Below are positions 3,095 through 61,753 of a DNA stretch of 64,000 nt, one piece after another (position 1 is the stretch's first letter; each line of letters begins with the position of its first letter). The notes beneath the pieces were generated by a model. It was not told the origin of the DNA, ran no database searches, and saw nothing but the letters and a program-made list of their open reading frames with translations. The position numbers and the translations under genes were made by a program. The stretch is from Dehalococcoidia bacterium. Its GTDB lineage: Bacteria; Chloroflexota; Dehalococcoidia; Lucifugimonadales; UBA2985. The DNA is taken from the NCBI GenBank assembly GCA_965263185.1, contig OZ253588.1, positions 1,863,369-1,927,368 of the forward strand, written 5' to 3'.

Positions 3095-4099
3095 ATGAAA
3101 ACAGTGAAGAATAGGTGGATTGGTCTATCTATGATTGTGGCGCTGGCCATGGTCATCACAGTAGCATTGGCCTGTGAACAAGAAGCCGACGAAGGCGTCG
3201 ATGGGCCGGAGACCAGGGGCACACTGTATCTCGTCGACCAGGACTGGAACGGCCAGCTTGCCACGACGGCTGTTGCGCAGATCCTGCTGGAGCAGGAAAT
3301 GGACCACACTGTCGCAACCAAATTTGCGCCCGCCGATTCGGCGCCCCTCTTCATAGGCCTCGAACGTGGCGATTTTCATTTCGTCTGCTGCAACTGGCCT
3401 TCCTACAGCGCCGAACTCCTGGACGAATACGTGAACGCTGAAGACGCCGAAGTGGAGCGCATGGGGACGGTTGGCATAGTGGGTGAGACCGGCTGGTATG
3501 TTCCTTCCTACGTCATCAATGGCGACGCCGACCGCGGCATCGAAGCAGTGGCGCCCAACCTACGCTCGGTTAGCGACCTGAACCAGTACAAGGACGTCTT
3601 TGCCACGAGCGATACCGGTAATAGTGGCAGACTCCTGGAGTTCACTCCTGCTTGGGATACAAGGCCAGAGGAACGACTTGAGGCGTTCGGCGTCGACTTC
3701 CAGACTGTGTTCTCCGGGTCCGAAGGCGCGTCTCTGGCTGAACTCGACGCCGCCTTTCAAAGGGGCGATCCCGTTATCACGTACCTATGGGAGCCCCACT
3801 GGGCACATGCCAAGTACAACCTGGTGCAGATCGAGATGCCCGAGTGGACTTCGGACTGCTATCCCGAGGGTGACAGCTTCAACTGCGGCTACCCAACCGA
3901 CGCCGTAGCAAAGCTGATTTGGCCGGGTCTTCAGGACGAGTTTCCAGAGGCATACGAGTTCCTCTCCAATTTCCAGATGACCAATGAACAGCAGAACGAG
4001 ATAGTCTTCAACCTCACCGAGAACGGCCTGCCCGTACGCCAGGCCGCGCAGGAGTGGGTTGACGCCAACGAGTCAGTCTGGAGATCCTGGATTCCATAG
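3095..4099 (+). CDS. proX: Glycine betaine/proline-binding lipoprotein (ProX/OpuAC family)
   Basis: Lipobox VALAC; YLWEPHW and GETGWYVPSYV motifs; RBS GAAAGGAG; operon context. Confidence 0.88.
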   Translation: MKTVKNRWIGLSMIVALAMVITVALACEQEADEGVDGPETRGTLYLVDQDWNGQLATTAVAQILLEQEMDHTVATKFAPADSAPLFIGLERGDFHFVCCNWPSYSAELLDEYVNAEDAEVERMGTVGIVGETGWYVPSYVINGDADRGIEAVAPNLRSVSDLNQYKDVFATSDTGNSGRLLEFTPAWDTRPEERLEAFGVDFQTVFSGSEGASLAELDAAFQRGDPVITYLWEPHWAHAKYNLVQIEMPEWTSDCYPEGDSFNCGYPTDAVAKLIWPGLQDEFPEAYEFLSNFQMTNEQQNEIVFNLTENGLPVRQAAQEWVDANESVWRSWIP

Positions 4100-4440: not shown

Positions 4441-4497
4441 GTGTCGTCTATGACTCATGGGCAATCCGAGACAACATCGGACAAGTGCGGAACGATG

Positions 4498-4520
4498 AGT
4501 GGTGGAGATAGGGGGAGTCG
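4498..4520 (-). repeat. attR: duplicated 3' end of tRNA-Ala
   Basis: AGTGGTGGAGATAGGGGGA (19 bp) is identical to 61676-61694, and the match extends to 23 bp with one mismatch. Confidence 0.9.
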
Positions 4521-39382: not shown

Positions 39383-40783
39383 CTAATCACCTATCCTATA
39401 CAAACTACCTTTACATAAACCATCATAACCCGAACGACTAAAGTACACTCGTCTATTTTCCTCAGTAAAATGTATAGTGAATGGCTCTCCTGGGACAAGC
39501 CTAACTACTTCTCCCACTTCATCACTACTTGCCCATCCGAATATATAACTCGAAGGTTGAGTCCTCAAATTCTTACCTATAGGACAATTATAATCAGCCA
39601 ACTTATCATACCCTAAAAACTCTAGTTTCCCATTCTCATCATAACCGCCCCATATAGGTATTTTATATTCATAAGTACCTGGAAGAAGATACTTTGCATC
39701 ATATCCTACTATCTTCTCTTTCCCCGTCCATAGTATACCCACAGGGAAAGTAAATAGTTCTTTCTCACACCAGCCATATCCTGGCACAATATAGTTTAGC
39801 TCTTTCTTGATTTTCTCTAACTCAGGATGAATAGGAGCTTTCGAGTTAATTTCCCCCGTAACCTCTATCCTATATATATGTCCCTGACCCAACCACTCCA
39901 TTACATCCTCTCTCCACTCTGCACAATAAATATCAAAAGGTATAGATGTAGGTTCAGGCGTAGCAGAGGGTCTAGGAGTCCTCGTTGGTGGTGGTGTAGG
40001 TGTACCAAGTAGTTCGTTAGTATCAGGTATTCTAGCGGGCTTGTTAGATCCCTCTTTTATATCAGTGCCTACGTTGTTGACAGGAATGGCGAAACCTATG
40101 CCGGCTATCGCCCTTCCTTCCCTGTCGTACTCCACCCTCGACACCACTATCCCTACCACCTGGCCGAACATGTTCAGCAACGGACCTCCGCTATTGCCCG
40201 GATTCAGCGCCGCGTCCGTTTGCAGCCTGTCGTCTCTCCTAGCCGATATGATGCCCGTGCTGACCGTAGGCTCCGCATCAGCATCCTGGAAGTAGGGGAA
40301 GCCGATGGCCACCACTTCATCCCCCACGCGTGCGTTGCTCGAGTCCCCTATGGCGATGGGCGTGAAGGACCGGTCGGAATCTATCTGAACATAGGCCAGG
40401 TCGAGCGTAGAGTGCTTGTCTATCACTCTGCCGCTGTATCTCCCTCCGGCAGCCAGGCGGACAGTTACGCTGACATCTTCATCAACCACGTGCTCATTGG
40501 TTACCACCAGGCCACTTTCATTCACGATGAACCCGCTACCGGCACCCGTGCTGGCGATAACCTGGACAATGCTGGGCAATGCATTCTCGGTTATATCGGC
40601 AACGGACAGGCCCGATGAGAGCAGGCCCTCGTTTTCAAGCGGTTCCCGTGTGGCGACAGGCGGGGTGGGAACGGCGGTGGTCCCTACAGCAGAGGGGCGC
40701 TCGATGGCAGGCGTCGCCTGGGGCGTACACGCGGCCACGGCGACAAGCAGAAAGATGGTGGGCAATAAAAGTCGGTGCAACAA
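39383..40783 (-). CDS. Lipoprotein trypsin-like (HtrA-type) serine protease with an AT-rich unknown C-terminal domain, no PDZ
   Basis: Lipobox AVAAC; GSGF, VTNEHVV, DLA, LNPGNSGGP catalytic triad. Confidence 0.85.
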   Translation of the reverse strand: MLHRLLLPTIFLLVAVAACTPQATPAIERPSAVGTTAVPTPPVATREPLENEGLLSSGLSVADITENALPSIVQVIASTGAGSGFIVNESGLVVTNEHVVDEDVSVTVRLAAGGRYSGRVIDKHSTLDLAYVQIDSDRSFTPIAIGDSSNARVGDEVVAIGFPYFQDADAEPTVSTGIISARRDDRLQTDAALNPGNSGGPLLNMFGQVVGIVVSRVEYDREGRAIAGIGFAIPVNNVGTDIKEGSNKPARIPDTNELLGTPTPPPTRTPRPSATPEPTSIPFDIYCAEWREDVMEWLGQGHIYRIEVTGEINSKAPIHPELEKIKKELNYIVPGYGWCEKELFTFPVGILWTGKEKIVGYDAKYLLPGTYEYKIPIWGGYDENGKLEFLGYDKLADYNCPIGKNLRTQPSSYIFGWASSDEVGEVVRLVPGEPFTIHFTEENRRVYFSRSGYDGLCKGSLYRIGD

Positions 40784-40800
40784 AGTTTCCTCTTTCTGTT

Positions 40801-42509
40801 AGCCGTTCAACAGGATTTCAATGACGGCGTCGGCATGCTGAAGAAGCAAAAGGGCGCTCCTCTGAATCTGGGATAATGGTTCTGGAACAGAAAACCGCCC
40901 GGAAACAAGGAGCACCCAATAGATGCTACCACAGAACAATCCCGACCGTATCCGCATAGTCTTTGACGACCACCGCTTGGTGGCCAATGCCGGCCTGCTG
41001 CTGCCGGCCACCCTGACCCAGCGCCTGGGCCTGCGGGAACTCGTCGACCATCACCTGGACCTTGGCGACGCGCCGGGCCGGGCGAACACGGGTGACAAGA
41101 TAATGACGCTGGTCGCTTCCGCGCTGGCTGGCGGCGACTGCATCGACGACGCAGATGCGCTGCGAGCCGGTGGGACGGCCGGTGTTCTCGGCTGCGTAGT
41201 CAAGGCTCCCTCCACCCTGGGCACCTTCCTGCGCAGTTTTCGCTGGGGCCACGTCCGTCAACTCGACCGCGTGAGCCGCGAGTTGCTGGCCCCGGGCCTG
41301 GAAGGCCGGAGCCGGACCCGGCGACGCACCCTTGACTATCGACCTAGATTCCACCATCTGCGAGACCTACGGGCTGGACAAGGAAGGGGCGCGACACCAT
41401 GGTTACACCGGCGCGCGGGGCTATCACCCGCTGCTGGCCGTCGCCGCCGGAACCGGCGACGTGCTGATGGCCCGGCTGCGCGAGGGCCGGGCCAACACCG
41501 CCCGCGGCGCCGCCCACTTCCTGCGTGAAACGGTGGGGCGGGTGCGCTACGCCGGAGCCAGGGGACAACTCACGGCGCGGGCCGACAGCGGCTTCTACGC
41601 TCATAGCGTGGTATCCGTCTGCCGCAAGATGGATGTCCGCTTCTCCATCACCCTCCGCCAGCACAAAAGCCTGCACAATGTCATCGAGGCCATACCTGAA
41701 GATGCCTGGACGCCCATTCCCTACTGGATGGACGGCGCCGCCGATGTGGCAGAGACCACCTATATCCCCTTCCAGAGTGAGCCCGACGCCGCGCCGGTGC
41801 GGCTCATCGTCCGGCGGGTGAAGCCCACGCCCGGTTCCCAGTTGGCCATCTTCGCCACCTACAGCTATCACGGCTTCATCACCGACCGCGATGGGGAGAT
41901 GCTGGAACTGGAGGCCGATCATCGCCGTCACGCCGAGATCGAGAATGCGATACGCGACCTCAAGTACGGTGTCGGACTGAACCACATGCCGTCCGGCCGC
42001 TTCGCCGCCAACGGCGCCTGGCTGGCGGTACAGGTGATGGCGCACAACCTGGCCCGCTGGACAGCCCGCATCGGCCTGGGTGAGCAGATCGTGACCACCA
42101 AGACCCTCAGACGACGGGTCTTTGCCTTGGCCGGACGGATCACCCGCTCGGCACGCCGATTGACCCTGCATCTTCCCCGGCGCTGGCCATGGGAGGAGCA
42201 GTTCAGCCGCGCCCTGGCCCGGCTGCGAGCCATTCCACTCCCAGCTTGACGGCGCCCTTCTGCCACTGACCCAACGTCCCCGCCAACTCGCACCAAGCAG
42301 CTCCGCGGGAGTTCCCTGCTGCCTATTCTATTGCCATCCCGCGCATCCCAGCTCCCGCAGACGGCCATTTGGGGGCCTGTGCGGTGACTGAAGACCCTCC
42401 GCCGACCTCCCATCTACCCCAATCGAGCCCAGGCCATCTCCCCTGTACCTCTCTCATCCCCCTTCTCCGGTCCTCACGCCGCCCATCCGTGTCCTTCGGT
42501 GGATTCGGG
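40801..42509 (+). mobile_element. IS1380 copy 2 (transposase 40923-42249, frameshift ~41292; variant left end)
   Basis: Split ORFs 40923-41528 and 41332-42249; right TIR at 42509; left end CCGTTCAACAGG differs from the other copies. Confidence 0.85.
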
Positions 42510-42559
42510 ATTATGTAAATCTAGTCACGAACATGGCCCCGGAATCGGACACTTCAGTG

Positions 42560-42588
42560 CGGTCTATCCCCACGTGTGTGGGGAACTC
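42560..42588 (-). CRISPR. Solitary type I-E-like CRISPR repeat (no array, no cas in window)
   Basis: GAGTTCCCCACACACGTGGGGATAGACCG (29 nt) versus E. coli GAGTTCCCCGCGCCAGCGGGGATAAACCG; palindromic stem intact. Confidence 0.75.
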
Positions 42589-42612
42589 CTGATGATCCTG
42601 GCCGCCTTCGTC

Positions 42613-42714
42613 CTAGCGGTCCTCCGGTTCTTCCGGTCCCAGCAGGTAACGCGTGAACATCAGGATGGCGTAGATGGCCTTCCGAGAAGGCTTGCGTGGT
42701 CTAGGCATCAGCAT
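42613..42714 (-). CDS. Possible 33-aa ORF ending 24 bp upstream of the solitary repeat
   Basis: MLMPRPRKPSRKAIYAILMFTRYLLGPEEPEDR*; weak RBS (GTAGGA). Confidence 0.3.
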   Translation of the reverse strand: MLMPRPRKPSRKAIYAILMFTRYLLGPEEPEDR

Positions 42715-43393
42715 TTCCTACCAGTGTGATAGCCAACCTGTACACCTTGCCCTGAGACTCAATCGGTAGTAGGGCACGCTAAAAGGGTTAGCATAAGTAG
42801 GAGCGTCATAGCCGCGTCCGTTCACCTGGAAGCGCGCCCACCTGTATCCTCTCGTGGGCTCCTGGTGGGCGTCGCTGGCAAGTTGCCGCAGGGCCCTCGT
42901 CAACTCCGAGCAAGTGAGTAGCGGCTCCGGCCCATCCGGCAGATGCGGACTGTCCCTGTTTGCTCCGGGCTGGTAGCAACACCGAGGGGGTACCAGCCCG
43001 CCCGTTGGCGATATTGCTTCCACCAGTGAGCCTCATTCCTCCACCAAGGCCTCACTGCCTCCACAGAATTGAGCCGATTCGTGCAAGTGGTGGAGGGAGT
43101 GGAAGCAGTGGAGGCAAATCCGACTTCTCTGCGGGGTGACTCGGAAGGGCAAGGAATGGGCGCTCTCGGTGTCACCTGGACCTAGCATTTCCTGCCAACG
43201 GCGTGGACGGACAGATACTTCCATCTCTGGTGTAACCCTAGCGATGCAATGCTGTGGGGTTGCATGTGGGGTTAGGGGTGAAATTACTACGAAACCATAG
43301 CCAAAACCGCCTCAGAGTGGCAGACAGGCCTCCTCTCGCTCAGCCCAAGACCCTCCATGGCGTATGACGCCGCTATTCTCCTCGCCTTGGGCT

Positions 43394-44228
43394 TCAGAAG
43401 TTTTTTGACAACATCTCCTTCAGCGCCCAGTTGTCCAACGCCTGCTGGGCCACAATATGCTTGAGTCGCCGGTTCTCATCCTCCAGGGACTTGAGCCTCT
43501 TGAGCTCGCTCACCGTCAGCCCTGCGTACTTGGCCTTCCAGTTGTAGAAGGTGGCGTCGCTCATGCCGTGCTTACGGCACAGGTCGGCTGTCCTGGCCCC
43601 CCGCATCAGCCGCTGCACCCGCTCCCGGCTTACCGGGAACCCCTGCCGGTTCAGCCAAGCCCGCATCCGCCGTGACTCATAGAAGGGGGCGCCAGGTACT
43701 GCCGGTCTATCTCCCGCATCAGCGACAGGTCCTTTCCAGAAGCCCCTTGTGACGGTAGTATATGCTGGAGCGGCTCACCCCCAGCAGGGCGCATTGCCCC
43801 ACTATCGTCAACGAGGGATGCTCTCGGTCCACCATCTCCCGCCGCCGGGCCGGGTTCATGGACCGGACCTCTCGGCCAAGAAATCCCGCTCCACCTTCAA
43901 CTGGCCAATCTCCTGGTACAACCGGGCGCCCAGAGCGGCGTCGCTCTGGGCCTTCTGGTGCTGACCATTGCCGAACACACCGGCGGCTCCCTCGGTCAGG
44001 GCCTTATTCCAGGCTTGAATCTGGCTTGGGTGGACTTCGTACCGGGCGGCCAGTTGGGCCACTGTCTCCCCCCCTTAACCGTATCCAGGGCCACCCTCGC
44101 CTTGAAGGCCGGGCTGTGTTTCCTTCTTCCTTGCGCCATGTCCTTCTCCTTCCAGACAGCAACAGCTGCCCTTAGCTTAGGAGCAGGACTCTCACTTAGC
44201 CACCTGTCCAGCTTCCTGGGTCCACCTC
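43394..44228 (-). mobile_element. Fused IS3 remnants (IS3-A-like 5' part plus IS407-like orfA fragment)
   Basis: IRL CCTGTCC..GGTCCACCTCA ending ~44228; broken orfA/orfB; ADLCRKHGMSDATFYNWKAKY. Confidence 0.75.
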
Positions 44229-44305
44229 AGTGTTTGTCATAAGCGCTATACTGGCCGTGGTCGACTGTTTTAGTTCTTGGCGACGTACCCGCTTGAAGGT
44301 GGCCA

Positions 44306-44585
44306 ATGGGTGAAAGCGCGTACGTCTGCGCCAAGCTCCGTTTCGACCGCCGTATACGATTGGAGCTCAACGGCGCCACTATTGCCTCAGATGCCGGACT
44401 GTTGGCCGGCCGGGAGCTGCATGGTGCGCTGGGAGTGATCGAGACGGCGAGTGAGTGTTTGCAGGAGACTCGGGGCGGTCGCAACGTGCAGCGCCGATTG
44501 GAGCCTCTTCTCAGGCAGTCGGTGTACAGTCGTCTGGCAGGCTGCGAGGAAACCAGCGACGCTGAACGGTTGGCCGATGACTTAA
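44306..44585 (+). pseudogene. N-terminal fragment of a different IS1380-family transposase
   Basis: MGES..LRFDRRIRLELNGATIASDAGLL..LLRQSVYSRLAG..DAERL. Confidence 0.7.
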
Positions 44586-44604
44586 CGATAGGGAGTGAAT
44601 CGAA

Positions 44605-47049
44605 ATGAGAACGCCACGCCTTTTCCTGGGAGTCTTTGCCCTTGCGCTGATTCTTCCGTTGCTGCTGGTGGCCTGCGGCGGCTCCGATGAACCGACAGAT
44701 AGGGCTGTGTCTACCCCAACGCAGGCAGCGGGCGCAACTGAACGGACGCCTTCTACGCCCGCCGAGGCCGACCCGGCTGCGACTACGGCGGCAGTGGCCG
44801 AACCGTCGCCCACGCCTGAGGACACCGCCACGCCGACAACTGCAGTGGCCGAACCGTCGCCCACGCCCAGGGCCACCGCCGTATCCCCGCTGGCACAGAC
44901 CTCGCCCGAAACGGACCGGGAAGCACTGGTCGCCCTCTATAACGCCACCGGCGGCAAAGCCTGGAGGCGCAGCTACAACTGGCTGGGCGACTTGCCGATT
45001 GGCGAGTGGTCTGGCGTCACCACTGACGACAACGGCCGCGTCACCAGACTAGATCTCAGCGATAGCGAGTTGAGCGGGGAGATACCGCCGGAGTTGGGCA
45101 ACCTCGCCAACCTGATTGGGCTGGACATCAGCGATAACGAGTTGAGCGGGGAGATACCGCCGGAGTTGGGCAACCTCGCCAACATGCAAGTGCTGACCCT
45201 TGGCGGGAACCAGTTGAGCGGGGAGATACCGCCGGAGTTGGGCAACCTCGCCAACATGGGAGTGCTGACCCTTGGCGGGAACCAGTTAAGCGGGGAAATA
45301 CCGCCGGAGTTGGGCAACCTCGCCAACCTGATTGGGCTGGGCCTCCATGACAACCAGTTGAGCGGGGAGATACCGCCGGAGTTGGGCAACCTCGCCAACC
45401 TGAAAGGGCTGTGGCTCAACGAAAACCGGTTGGGTGGGGAGATACCGCCGGAGTTGGGCAACCTCGCCAACATGGAAAGCCTGTGGCTCCACGACAACCA
45501 GTTGAGCGGAGAGATACCGCCGTGGTTGAGCGACCTCGCCAACCTGCAATGGCTGCTCCTCCACGACAACCAGTTGAGCGGGGAGATACCGCCGTGGTTG
45601 GGCGACCTCGCCAACCTGATTGGGCTGGGCCTCAACGGGAACGAGTTGAGCGGGTGCGTGCCCAGCAGTTTGTTGGGCCGGTTGGATATGGACAAATCAG
45701 ATCTAGGTGATCTCGAGTTCTGCCCTTGGCTGGCGCAGACCTCGCCCGAAACGGACCGGGAAGCGCTGGTCGCCCTCTATAACGCCACCGGCGGCAAAGC
45801 CTGGAGGCGCAGCTACAACTGGCTGGGCGACTTGCCGATTGGCGAGTGGTCTGGCGTCACCACTGACGACAACGGCCGCGTCACCAGACTAGATCTCAGC
45901 GATAGCGAGTTGAGGGGGGAGATACCTGCGGAGTTGGGAAACCTCGCCAACCTGACATGGCTGAATCTCTACGAGAACGACTTGAACGGGGAGATACCTG
46001 CGGAGCTGGGCAACCTCGCCAACCTGATATGGCTGGACCTCAGCGATAACGAGTTGAGCGGGGAGATTCCGCCGGAGTTGGGCAACCTCGCCAACCTGAT
46101 TGGGCTGGGCCTCCACGATAACGAGTTGAGCGGGGAGATTCCGCCGTGGTTGGGCGACCTCGCCAACCTGATATGGCTGCTCCTCCACGATAACGAGTTG
46201 AGCGGGGAGATACCGCCGGAGTTGGGCAACCTCGCCAACCTGATTGGGCTGGGCCTCGGCAACAACCACTTGAGCGGGTGCGTGCCCAGCAGTTTGTTGG
46301 GCCGGTTGGATATGGACAAATCAGATCTAGGTGATCTCGAGTTCTGCCCTTGGCTGGCGCAGACCTCGCCCGAAACGGACCGGGAAGCGCTGGTCGCCCT
46401 CTATAACGCCACCGGCGGCAAAGCCTGGAGGCGCAGCTACAACTGGCTGGGCGACTTGCCGATTGGCGAGTGGTCTGGCGTCACCACTGACGACAACGGC
46501 CGCGTCACCAGACTAGATCTCAGCGATAGCGAGTTGAGCGGGGAGATACCGCCGGAGTTGGGCAACCTCGCCAACCTGGAACTGCTGGACCTCAGCGATA
46601 ACGAGTTGAGCGGGGAGATACCTGCGGAGCTGGGCAACCTCGCCAACCTGATTGGGCTGGACCTTGGCGGGAACCAGTTGAGCGGGGAGATACCGCCGGA
46701 GTTGGGCAACCTCGCCAACATGCAAGCTCTGTGGCTCCACGAAAACCGGTTGGGTGGGGAGATACCGACGGAGTTGGGCAACCTCACCAACATGCAAGCT
46801 CTGTGGCTCCACGAAAACCGGTTGGGTGGGGAGATACCGCCGTGGTTGGGCGACCTCGCCAACCTGATATGGCTGCTCCTCCACGATAACGAGTTGAGTG
46901 GGGAGATACCGCCGCAGTTGGGCAACCTCGCCAACCTGGGAGTGCTCACCCTTAGCGGGAACGAGTTAAGCGGGTGCGTGCCAAGCAGTTTGTTGGGCCG
47001 GTTGGATATGGACAAATCAGATCTAGGTGATCTCGAGTTCTGCCCTTGA
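44605..47049 (+). CDS. Lipoprotein with three tandem plant-type LRR modules
   Basis: Lipobox LVAC; modules start at 44893, 45733 and 46357, each N-cap, 72-nt LRR units and C-cap DLGDLEFCP. Confidence 0.92.
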   Translation: MRTPRLFLGVFALALILPLLLVACGGSDEPTDRAVSTPTQAAGATERTPSTPAEADPAATTAAVAEPSPTPEDTATPTTAVAEPSPTPRATAVSPLAQTSPETDREALVALYNATGGKAWRRSYNWLGDLPIGEWSGVTTDDNGRVTRLDLSDSELSGEIPPELGNLANLIGLDISDNELSGEIPPELGNLANMQVLTLGGNQLSGEIPPELGNLANMGVLTLGGNQLSGEIPPELGNLANLIGLGLHDNQLSGEIPPELGNLANLKGLWLNENRLGGEIPPELGNLANMESLWLHDNQLSGEIPPWLSDLANLQWLLLHDNQLSGEIPPWLGDLANLIGLGLNGNELSGCVPSSLLGRLDMDKSDLGDLEFCPWLAQTSPETDREALVALYNATGGKAWRRSYNWLGDLPIGEWSGVTTDDNGRVTRLDLSDSELRGEIPAELGNLANLTWLNLYENDLNGEIPAELGNLANLIWLDLSDNELSGEIPPELGNLANLIGLGLHDNELSGEIPPWLGDLANLIWLLLHDNELSGEIPPELGNLANLIGLGLGNNHLSGCVPSSLLGRLDMDKSDLGDLEFCPWLAQTSPETDREALVALYNATGGKAWRRSYNWLGDLPIGEWSGVTTDDNGRVTRLDLSDSELSGEIPPELGNLANLELLDLSDNELSGEIPAELGNLANLIGLDLGGNQLSGEIPPELGNLANMQALWLHENRLGGEIPTELGNLTNMQALWLHENRLGGEIPPWLGDLANLIWLLLHDNELSGEIPPQLGNLANLGVLTLSGNELSGCVPSSLLGRLDMDKSDLGDLEFCP

Positions 47050-59936: not shown

Positions 59937-60104
59937 GTCAAATGGCGCACGATTGTTGGCGGTATTCTATCATACATATAGTGGCCAAAACAATTGCCGG
60001 CATCAGAGTTGCCAAGGGGGGTGGGTGATCCTTACACCCGTCCAGGTGTCCGCTCTGTAAGTTTGGCGCCAATGGCCGAATCAGGACAGAAAGGAGGTGG
60101 CGAT

Positions 60105-60290
60105 ATGCACAACAGACTGCTGAAGCGACGCCAGGTTGAGGAAATCACGGGCATAAGTCGCTCGTCGATCTACCGGCTCATGAAGAGTGGAGAGTTCCCA
60201 CAGCGCGTCAAGGTCGGCCGCAACGGCTCCAGGTGGAGGGAAAGCGACATCACGGCTTGGGTGGAGTCGCGGCCGGAAGCGAGGAGCTAG
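60105..60290 (+). CDS. alpA: AlpA-family regulator/excisionase
   Basis: RLLKRRQVEEITGISRSSIYRLMKSGEFPQRVKVG..RWRESDITAW; RBS AAGGAGG. Confidence 0.9.
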   Translation: MHNRLLKRRQVEEITGISRSSIYRLMKSGEFPQRVKVGRNGSRWRESDITAWVESRPEARS

Positions 60291-60372: not shown

Positions 60373-61521
60373 TCAGCCGGTCAGGTAGTCCGCCCAAAGC
60401 TGCATCAGAGAGCGGCGCCGCTCAAACAGGTCGGACCTGGCGTAGGCCTGTTCCGTTGAATTCCCCAGGATATGGGCAAGGGCCGACTCCGACACAGCCC
60501 AGGGGGTATCCGTCTGCTCCAGCGTCCAGTTCTTGAAGCTGCTACGGAACCCGTGGACGGTGGCGCTCTCCGCCAGGCCCGTTGAACGGAGGACCTTAGT
60601 GAGCGTCATGTCAGACATCGGCGAACCCGGCCTCAGGGGTGAGGGGAACACCAGACCCGACTCATCGCGCAGCGCCGATGCCTTGCAAAGCACATCAAGG
60701 GCCTGTCCGCTCAGGGGTACCCGGTGCTCCACGCCCGCCTTCATACGCTGGGGCGGTATCCTCCATACCTGCCCCGGGATGTCGATCTCGTCCCAGACAG
60801 CGCCCCTGGCTTCACCGGAACGCGCCGCCGTCAAGACCAGAAATCGAAAGCACAACTTGGCCGGCATGGAGGCTTGGGACGCATCCACAGTCTTGAGCGC
60901 CTCTCCCACCTCCGGGTAGGGCAGGGCTCTGAGATGGGCCTTCACCTTCGGCATAGGGGGCAAGGCGCCGTCAATGGCCTCCCCCGCCGGGTTGGTCTCC
61001 ATGAAGCCGTGCGCCATCGCCCATCGGAATATGGTCCGCATCCGTTGACGCACCCTCCGGGCCGTCTCCGGCCGGGTCGTCCATACCGGCGTGAGGACTT
61101 GCAGCACTTCGGTCCGGTCTATGCGGTCGAGAGGTGTGTTGCCCAGCGCCGGCATGGCGTGTCGCTCCAGGGTCTGCGTCCAGCTTGCGCTGTGCTTCCC
61201 GTTGCGCCAGCGCGGTCTATTCGCCTCATGGACGGCATGTGCAGCATCCCTGAATGACGGCATAGCAGGCCTGCGTTTGTCCGCCAGGGGGTCGCGACCG
61301 CCCGCAACGGCCGCTCGATAGTCCGCCGCCTTCTCGCGGGCTTGAGCCAGGCTCACCGACGGGAAGCCGCCCAGGCCGATATCCCGCCGGTGTCCGTCGA
61401 TGGTGATGCGCTGCACCCAGGACTTCCGACCGGCCTTGCTGATGAATAGGTGCAGTCCCCCGCCGTCCGAGAATCGCCCGGGGTCCTTGAGGGCCTTAAC
61501 CCGCGTCGCCGATAGTGGCAT
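60373..61521 (-). CDS. int: P4-like tyrosine integrase
   Basis: Arm-binding N-terminus; TAARSGE, HGFRSSF, LAH, AYARSD catalytic motifs; next to the tRNA. Confidence 0.95.
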   Translation of the reverse strand: MPLSATRVKALKDPGRFSDGGGLHLFISKAGRKSWVQRITIDGHRRDIGLGGFPSVSLAQAREKAADYRAAVAGGRDPLADKRRPAMPSFRDAAHAVHEANRPRWRNGKHSASWTQTLERHAMPALGNTPLDRIDRTEVLQVLTPVWTTRPETARRVRQRMRTIFRWAMAHGFMETNPAGEAIDGALPPMPKVKAHLRALPYPEVGEALKTVDASQASMPAKLCFRFLVLTAARSGEARGAVWDEIDIPGQVWRIPPQRMKAGVEHRVPLSGQALDVLCKASALRDESGLVFPSPLRPGSPMSDMTLTKVLRSTGLAESATVHGFRSSFKNWTLEQTDTPWAVSESALAHILGNSTEQAYARSDLFERRRSLMQLWADYLTG

Positions 61522-61564: not shown

Positions 61565-61677
61565 CTTGTGGCGGGATAGTGAGGGAACAGGATGGCATGA
61601 TGGGGTACTGATCAGGGATTGAACAGCTACGAACAGGGGCGTTCTGGGACAACATAGGACAAGAGAGGAATGATAAG

Positions 61678-61753
61678 TGGTGGAGATAGGGGGACTCGAA
61701 CCCCCAACCTCGGCGATGCGAACGCCGCGCTCTCCCAGTTGAGCTATATCCCC
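61678..61753 (-). tRNA. tRNA-Ala (CGC)
   Basis: GGGGATATAGCTCAACTGGGAGAGCGCGGCGTTCGCATCGCCGAGGTTGGGGGTTCGAGTCCCCCTATCTCCACCA; cloverleaf, G3:U70, encoded CCA. Confidence 0.97.

Follow-up and report, generated by a model that had tools for sequence, protein, structure and literature searches.

A solitary type I-E CRISPR repeat on a tRNA-Ala island of a Dehalococcoidia bacterium is probably a relic fragment

The stretch of DNA analysed here, hereafter the window, is 64 kb long and corresponds to C1:1863369-1927368 of a 2.5-Mb genome of 61% G+C. It carries one isolated type I-E CRISPR repeat, located within an island integrated at a tRNA-Ala gene. We consider that this solitary repeat is probably a relic fragment, and not a working anti-CRISPR or regulatory RNA gene. 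The observations behind this reading include the following: the repeat belongs to a 100-nt unit that is found a second time in the genome, at a site called locus B, and that starts at the scar of a broken gene; locus B shows what lies downstream of the unit when no insertion sequence interrupts it; and a target test that is passed by another repeat-containing element of the same genome is failed by the window repeat. The features of the window are collected in Table 1.

Table 1. Features of the window around the solitary repeat and at the ends of the island (window positions)
Feature	Position	Strand	Remarks
Solitary type I-E CRISPR repeat GAGTTCCCCACACACGTGGGGATAGACCG	42560-42588	(-)	Stem CCCCAC/GTGGGG, loop ACAC, handle ATAGACCG
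32-nt spacer-like stretch CACTGAAGTGTCCGATTCCGGGGCCATGTTCG	42528-42559	(-)	25/32 identical to the locus-B copy
22 nt upstream of the repeat, cgAAGGCGGCCAGGATCATCAG	42589-42610	(-)	Carries AAGGCGGCCA
100-nt unit shared with locus B (C1:1591370-1591469)	42511-42610	(-)	87% identity
33-aa ORF MPRPRKPSRKAIYAILMFTRYLLGPEEPEDR	42613-42714	(-)	Outside the conserved unit; no family match
DNA unique to this genome, ~400 bp, non-coding-looking	42611-43014		Upstream of the unit
Decayed IS1380-family copy	40829-42509	(+)	Right end adjoins the unit; target ATTAT (42510-42514)
tRNA-Ala(CGC)	61678-61753	(-)	Proximal island end
P4-type tyrosine integrase	60373-61521	(-)	Adjoins tRNA-Ala(CGC)
AlpA	59994-60290		Near the integrase
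Distal att-like direct repeat (tRNA-Ala 3' end and flank)	4470-4520	(-)	Far island end; partner 61630-61694

The repeat has the layout GAGTT-CCCCAC-ACAC-GTGGGG-ATAGACCG, that is 5 nt, a 6-bp stem interrupted by a 4-nt loop, and an 8-nt handle. This is the canonical type I-E architecture. The hairpin is present in the predicted folds of the window copy and of the locus-B copy. The exact 29-mer occurs once in the window and in 0 of 100 shuffles. An earlier note on this DNA, which described one 29-nt repeat with an intact stem and handle, was thus correct on this point. Among natural I-E arrays, the commonest close relative of the solitary repeat is GAGTTCCCCACACACGTGGGGATGAACC (161 copies at 9 loci), with which it shares 26 of 28 positions. 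More than 100 genomes from many phyla have full arrays built on its 20-nt core, TTCCCCACACAYGTGGGGAT. To judge by its layout and its likeness to real arrays, the window 29-mer is a genuine type I-E repeat. The exact variant with the ATAG handle, searched as a 23-nt pattern, was found in 0 of 185,579 species genomes and in 0 viral contigs. The 23-nt repeat core matched a single metagenome contig, at an unrelated degenerate array end, and an Rfam scan of window positions 40000-46000 (E<=1) gave no family match.

The repeat is isolated. The earlier note had reported no second repeat at +/-61 bp and no cas gene in the window. Both absences were recovered: over +/-52-72 nt the best score is 14/29, and the 64-kb window has no cas gene. 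A CRISPR array, with at least 2 repeats and spacers of ~32-33 nt, is therefore not formed by the single copy present in the window.

The genome has its own I-E system, ~540 kb from the repeat. One complete operon, at C1:1355214-1364954, encodes cas3, cse1, cse2, cas7, cas5, cas6e, cas1 and cas2 (Pfam, NCBIfam); tblastn and a Cas1 scan showed it to be the only cas locus in the genome. It is followed by an array at C1:1365065-1373254, with 135 repeats GGTTCCCCCGCACACGCGGGGATAGACC(N) and 134 spacers. A host I-E system with a matching repeat, for which a check had been proposed, does exist. The array repeat and the solitary repeat are identical at 24 of 29 positions, including the whole loop (4/4) and the whole handle (8/8). 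Three of the 5 differences are in the 5' tail and the other 2 make up one compensated stem pair (G-C to A-T). A further array of 3-4 repeats, orphan and without cas genes, was seen at C1:323286-323492.

None of the host's 134 spacers matches the window, and the same holds for 234 spacers sampled from arrays of three relatives. Spacer 69 of the host array matches a chromosomal gene of its own genome at all positions, 33/33 (C1:2221225-2221257). The flank of this match reads TC|T on the targeting side, with no AA-type PAM, and AA|C on the flipped side. This suggests an insertion of the spacer in reverse orientation, hence its tolerance, and the self-match is probably not licensed for interference. 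Spacer 69 was accordingly discounted as evidence for an inhibitor: since the targeting side has no AA-type PAM, no inhibitor is called for.

The 100-nt unit that contains the repeat recurs once in the genome, at locus B. It consists, in order, of a ~10-nt junction resembling a gene end, 11 nt, the repeat, ~40 nt and the start of a promoter element (TTTACATAA). At locus B the repeat (C1:1591419-1591447) has the same A-T stem variant, with 2 mismatches, and the upstream part of the unit is the broken end of a threonine-dehydratase paralogue, here called ilvA'. The ilvA' product can be aligned as far as ...GVQAEAA (HMMER against PDB structures of IlvA/TdcB, and IlvA of five congeners), and DNA homology ends at GAG GCG GCC A, 11 nt before the repeat. 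In the window copy, AAGGCGGCCA matches the broken ilvA' end at 9 of 10 positions, and a frame reading (K/E)AARIIRSSPH(T/M)WG* is common to both copies. Only 11 nt thus lie between the repeat and the gene-fragment junction in either copy, and the unit's 5' border is a scar left by rearrangement, which is not how a designed RNA gene would be delimited. The window copy would either descend from a junction of the locus-B type or have been joined through a microhomology of ~9 bp. An assignment of the first 5-7 nt of the repeat (GAGTTCC) to the ilvA' gene was rejected, as the DNA homology with ilvA of congeners ends at GCGGCCA and GAGTT is the true 5' end of a widespread repeat family.

The two copies of the unit differ at 3 positions in the ~51 nt made of the repeat and its upstream part, versus 10 positions in the ~50 nt downstream. 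This clustering weakly suggests constraint, at roughly p~0.05-0.1 by our own estimate. In both full copies the stem is intact despite an overall divergence of ~13%, and the handle is near-perfect. The 33-aa ORF was found as described earlier, on the same strand as the repeat and ending 24 nt before it; the unit probably does not include it as a gene. A search of 30-40 relatives and of 150 genomes from the order showed neither the unit nor its unique flank. The search for the repeat variant in relatives gave nothing beyond ordinary arrays, and the junction patterns of the unit had 0 matches in viral contigs.

Locus B lies in a tandem of threonine-dehydratase genes (C1:1589920-1592175), where a 5' fragment of 243 codons is followed, ~400 nt downstream, by a complete gene. 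The ilvA' fragment is 74-78% identical to IlvA of congeners and the complete gene only 71-72%. The original gene may be the fragment, with the complete ilvA as a replacement.

Locus B carries no IS. The unit continues there into a promoter element of ~96 nt, and no further repeat follows. The element contains a strong promoter-like site, TGGACA-16-TATATT with TG, directed away from the repeat. It is present at four loci (C1:1591270-1591370, 1390743-1390837, ~303300-303400 and ~2154100-2154200), with conserved blocks …CTAGNCACG…CGCCGTCCTRGACGC…TGGTCGTTGTGGACAG…TGGTATAT, and precedes unrelated genes, namely two LRR lipoprotein genes and two sets of small ORFs. Because the sequence upstream of it is different at each locus, the element behaves like a portable promoter or a recombination joint. 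A decayed unit upstream of the element was considered at two of the loci (D and F) and rejected, the alignment scores being no better than those of shuffles. Since locus B has no repeat downstream, and since the junction is 11 nt away in both copies, the repeat must, on this comparison, have been solitary before the IS insertion and the duplication.

A cassette of two small ORFs was noticed at C1:1390029-1390890 (-), between direct repeats that duplicate CCGCAGGCCCGGGTGAACC, the ribosome-binding site and the first ~9 codons (ATGGTCACACCGGAACAACGTCTCC) of the first gene. An IS1380 end directly follows the second copy of the direct repeat.

The island that encloses the window repeat spans ~57 kb between the tRNA-Ala gene and the distal direct repeat. 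The two att repeats are ~60 nt long and consist of the last ~17 nt of the tRNA and ~40 nt of flank. The tRNA gene, the adjoining integrase and the direct repeats give substance to the earlier proposal of a mobile island. The cargo comprises defence genes, LRR genes and most of the IS copies of the window. The island is heavily degraded and riddled with IS, and may have lost its mobility.

The IS next to the unit was assigned to the IS1380 family through a match of NCBIfam NF033539 to an intact sister copy. It is ~92% identical to more than 40 other copies in the 2.5-Mb genome. Two ORFs now make up its split transposase, and ~16-22 nt have been lost from the start of its left inverted repeat, so that no target-site duplication is seen. 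In this genome the element has the inverted repeats CCCGAATCCACCGAAGGA and 5-bp target duplications resembling NTTAG or ATTAT. The IS1380 end had been placed 50 bp downstream of the repeat, which agrees with the 46-50 nt measured here; the factual statements of the earlier note were all confirmed. On the other side, beyond the unique ~400 bp, a patchwork of IS fragments extends over 43014-44336.

We looked for signs of expression and targeting at the window repeat. No sigma-70-like promoter was predicted on either strand of window positions 42300-43400, which include ~800 nt upstream, by what is a crude prediction; such sites are evident elsewhere in the genome, for instance in the promoter element of locus B. 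A terminator scan found no terminator-like site adjoining the repeat on its strand. Targets of the 32-nt stretch, whose search had been suggested earlier, were sought with its first 20 nt, every sixth position being ignored, and compared with shuffled versions. Seed-side matches were at or below the shuffled level, both within +/-5 kb and genome-wide, and at neither scale did any site combine an AAG PAM with a contiguous seed. No seed match was present in the cas promoter regions. The search thus yielded no PAM-flanked match above chance in the genome. An 11-nt match of the locus-B pseudo-spacer to the left end of IS1380 was put down to chance: seed positions 1-2 are mismatched and there is no AAG PAM, and the 40 IS copies inflate the count of such matches. 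Pfam and PHROG gave no match for the 33-aa ORF and the neighbouring small ORFs, and no acr-like or phage-family neighbour of the repeat was found with them.

The same genome provides a positive control for the target test. A crRNA-like mini-array is located on the minus strand of the cas3-cse1 spacer, at C1:1357909-1357998 (spacer C1:1357889-1358396; locus L004 4891-5396). It is composed of a pseudo-repeat ...CCCCGGCCCGGGGATAGTCCT, a 33-nt pseudo-spacer and then GGTTCCCCCGCACACGCGGGGATTAGGG. The first repeat is degenerate, with the handle ATAGTCCT, and the second has a degenerate 3' end. The pseudo-spacer matches an AAG-flanked site at C1:1358056 at 15 of its first 17 positions, with mismatches at 6 and 8, and no other AAG-flanked site in the genome scores as high. 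A TTGACA-17-TACAGT promoter lies immediately upstream of this site, and a 58-aa ORF, itself followed by cse1, comes ~40 nt after it. The rest of the cas3-cse1 spacer shows no conservation at the DNA level in three relatives (G001, G008 and G020). The mini-array resembles a module of the CreR/CreTA type, placed within a type I-E operon. It passes the target test that the window repeat fails.

Other ectopic repeats are present in the genome. One, at C1:1379922-1379950 (locus C), has the same A-T stem variant with 4 mismatches, one of which breaks the stem. A half-decayed repeat is found at C1:891523-891550. Taken together, the intact window and locus-B copies, the copy with a broken stem at locus C and the half-lost copy at 891523 look like a decaying family. 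Locus C is 6.6 kb past the trailer of the array, among genes for GIY-YIG, ADP-ribosylglycohydrolase, AbiJ and PD-(D/E)XK proteins, and its pseudo-spacer has an AAG and an 8-nt seed match 4.3 kb away (C1:1384231). The congener G001 has a solitary I-E repeat, AGTTTCCCCACACACGCGGGGATAGACAA (locus L034, C1:2155000-2162000; 3471-3499 (-)), with an A·C mismatch in the stem. It lies between tRNA-Ala(CGC) and htpX, ~95 nt downstream of the former. We rejected it as an orthologue of the window repeat, as there is no synteny.

Our preferred reading, the relic fragment, may be put as follows. The source would be a locus of the GAGTTCCCCACACACGTGGGGAT... repeat family, either an I-E array or a site with a solitary repeat. 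From it, a fragment of ~100 nt, in which one repeat is accompanied by a few nucleotides of what once preceded it and by ~40 nt of the DNA that followed, would have become joined to the broken threonine-dehydratase paralogue, with ~9-10 bp of common sequence (AGGCGGCCA) at the joint. Duplication of this fragment would have given the two diverged genomic copies, the window copy ending up in the junkyard of the tRNA-Ala island. There, an IS1380 insertion 46 nt 3' of the repeat would have severed the downstream sequence before decaying itself. If read-through transcription crosses the repeat, host Cas6e could probably cut after GTGGGG; the cut would leave an RNA headed by ATAGACCG that has neither a 3' hairpin nor a target, and would thus have no programmed function. 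The repeat and its isolation, the second copy, the gene junction, the IS and the island were all observed, as was the lack of targets and of a promoter-like site; that the fragment is not under selection is what we infer. Some points speak against a relic. The intact hairpins of both copies, the host-identical handle of the window copy and the downstream clustering of differences weakly suggest otherwise; an integrative island in a host of matching subtype is the kind of setting from which functional solitary repeats were described (PMC10651486); and the congener G001 also keeps a solitary repeat.

Solitary repeat units on mobile elements were reportedly treated by Faure and co-workers in 2019. 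Functional solitary repeats have been described on mobile elements in hosts with the same CRISPR subtype (Camara-Wilpert et al. 2023, PMC10651486). A Racr-like decoy of this kind had been proposed for the window repeat. The island repeat would be transcribed, bound and cut by Cas6e, and would sequester Cas6e/Cas7 in dead-end complexes, so that the island would face a weaker I-E immunity. The other genomic copies could add to the sponge. We regard such a decoy as unlikely. Its prerequisites are in place: like the known units, the window repeat is a single intergenic repeat with an intact hairpin, here predicted in both full copies, with no cas gene or further repeat nearby, on an integrated element that has kept its integrase and att repeats; the complete host I-E system shares its handle and loop, and the two-sided G-C to A-T change preserves the stem. 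A solitary intergenic repeat on a mobile element in a same-subtype host corresponds to the bioinformatic criteria for candidates (PMC10651486). Of function itself no positive sign was seen. The element that carries the window repeat is a tRNA island and neither phage nor plasmid, no promoter-like site was predicted directly upstream, no acr-like or phage-family gene was found beside it, and the island is targeted neither by host spacers nor by the 234 sampled from relatives. Dead IS elements flank the duplicated fragment in which the repeat sits, and this fragment includes the junction with a broken gene. The repeat also has paralogues at two chromosomal loci: by gene neighbourhood, one is beside the truncated ilvA-like gene directly upstream of chromosomal ilvA and the other is in a defence-type region just past the CRISPR array. 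Finally, the one host spacer with a perfect self-match gives no reason to expect an inhibitor, its targeting side being without a PAM. A more specific proposal, that of an island-borne I-E RNA anti-CRISPR made by read-through and cut by Cas6e, which would act as a Cas6e/Cas7 sponge jointly with the paralogue downstream of the ilvA' pseudogene and protect the island as well as other accessory DNA, is slightly less probable again.

Ectopic repeats are also known to give rise to crRNA-like regulators: CreA of CreTA, CreR, the crlRNAs of CRISPR-supervised systems and viral Cracr (PMC8501985, PMC9458426, bioRxiv 10.1101/2024.12.27.630466, 10.1101/2024.10.29.618823). Both solitary mobile-element repeats and ectopic regulatory repeats are already established categories. 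In the second case the 32-nt stretch would guide Cascade to a promoter by partial complementarity, either for the host (CreA/CreR type) or for the element (Cracr type). Solitary repeat units are known to yield such RNAs (bioRxiv 10.1101/2024.12.27.630466; 10.1101/2024.10.29.618823), the window repeat combines an ectopic repeat with a spacer-length stretch within a defence-rich island, and the I-E locus of the same genome bears a mini-array with an AAG-flanked 15/17 target beside a promoter. The regulatory reading, put forward in the earlier note, is nevertheless very improbable. The window repeat has no second pseudo-repeat, no adjoining terminator-like site and no PAM-flanked partial target: its seed-side matches are no commoner than in shuffles, none has AAG with a contiguous seed, and none falls in the promoter regions of a cas operon that is ~540 kb away. 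The mini-array passes the same test. The 3' end that would define such a regulator was not found either, the IS interrupting the window copy past 46 nt and locus B having no such element. We give as little credence to a role at the DNA level, in which the hairpin repeat would be a point of recombination or attachment used in cassette exchange or in off-target integration by Cas1-Cas2. The unit does lie at rearrangement joints in both copies, and a cassette bracketed by direct repeats exists in the same genome (C1:1390029-1390890). Against this, no insert is flanked by a duplicated repeat, at loci D and F what precedes the promoter element has no homology to the unit, and no leader-like sequence is held in common with the real array. 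The least probable of the alternatives is the array truncation raised in the earlier note, with the repeat as the last or first one of a normal array whose remainder was removed by the IS1380 insertion. It would fit with the IS1380 end 46-50 nt from the repeat and with a genome full of IS copies, but it is contradicted by locus B, where the sequence past the 32-nt stretch is uninterrupted and is the promoter element common to other loci, not a repeat. Moreover, only 11 nt lead from the repeat to the gene-fragment junction in both copies, and no related strain with a multi-repeat array at the position of the IS was present in the collections searched.

The relic fragment that we favour resembles orphan and degenerate CRISPR remnants: isolated repeats of an array family in an IS-rich genome, graded decay, and an orphan mini-array of 3-4 repeats. 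It differs from them in that ~13% divergence of the unit has left the hairpin perfect and the handle near-perfect in the window and locus-B copies. Screens for solitary repeats may take a caution from this case, as a perfect-looking repeat on an island can be a fragment with a scrap of a broken gene attached. The comparison with the cas3-cse1 mini-array offers a practical yardstick for telling a genuine crRNA-like element from a fragment. An active repeat would carry RNA anti-CRISPRs beyond phages and plasmids, to tRNA-integrated islands and to type I-E in an environmental lineage. As the evidence stands, it is an example of CRISPR repeats persisting as isolated fragments in an IS-rich genome.
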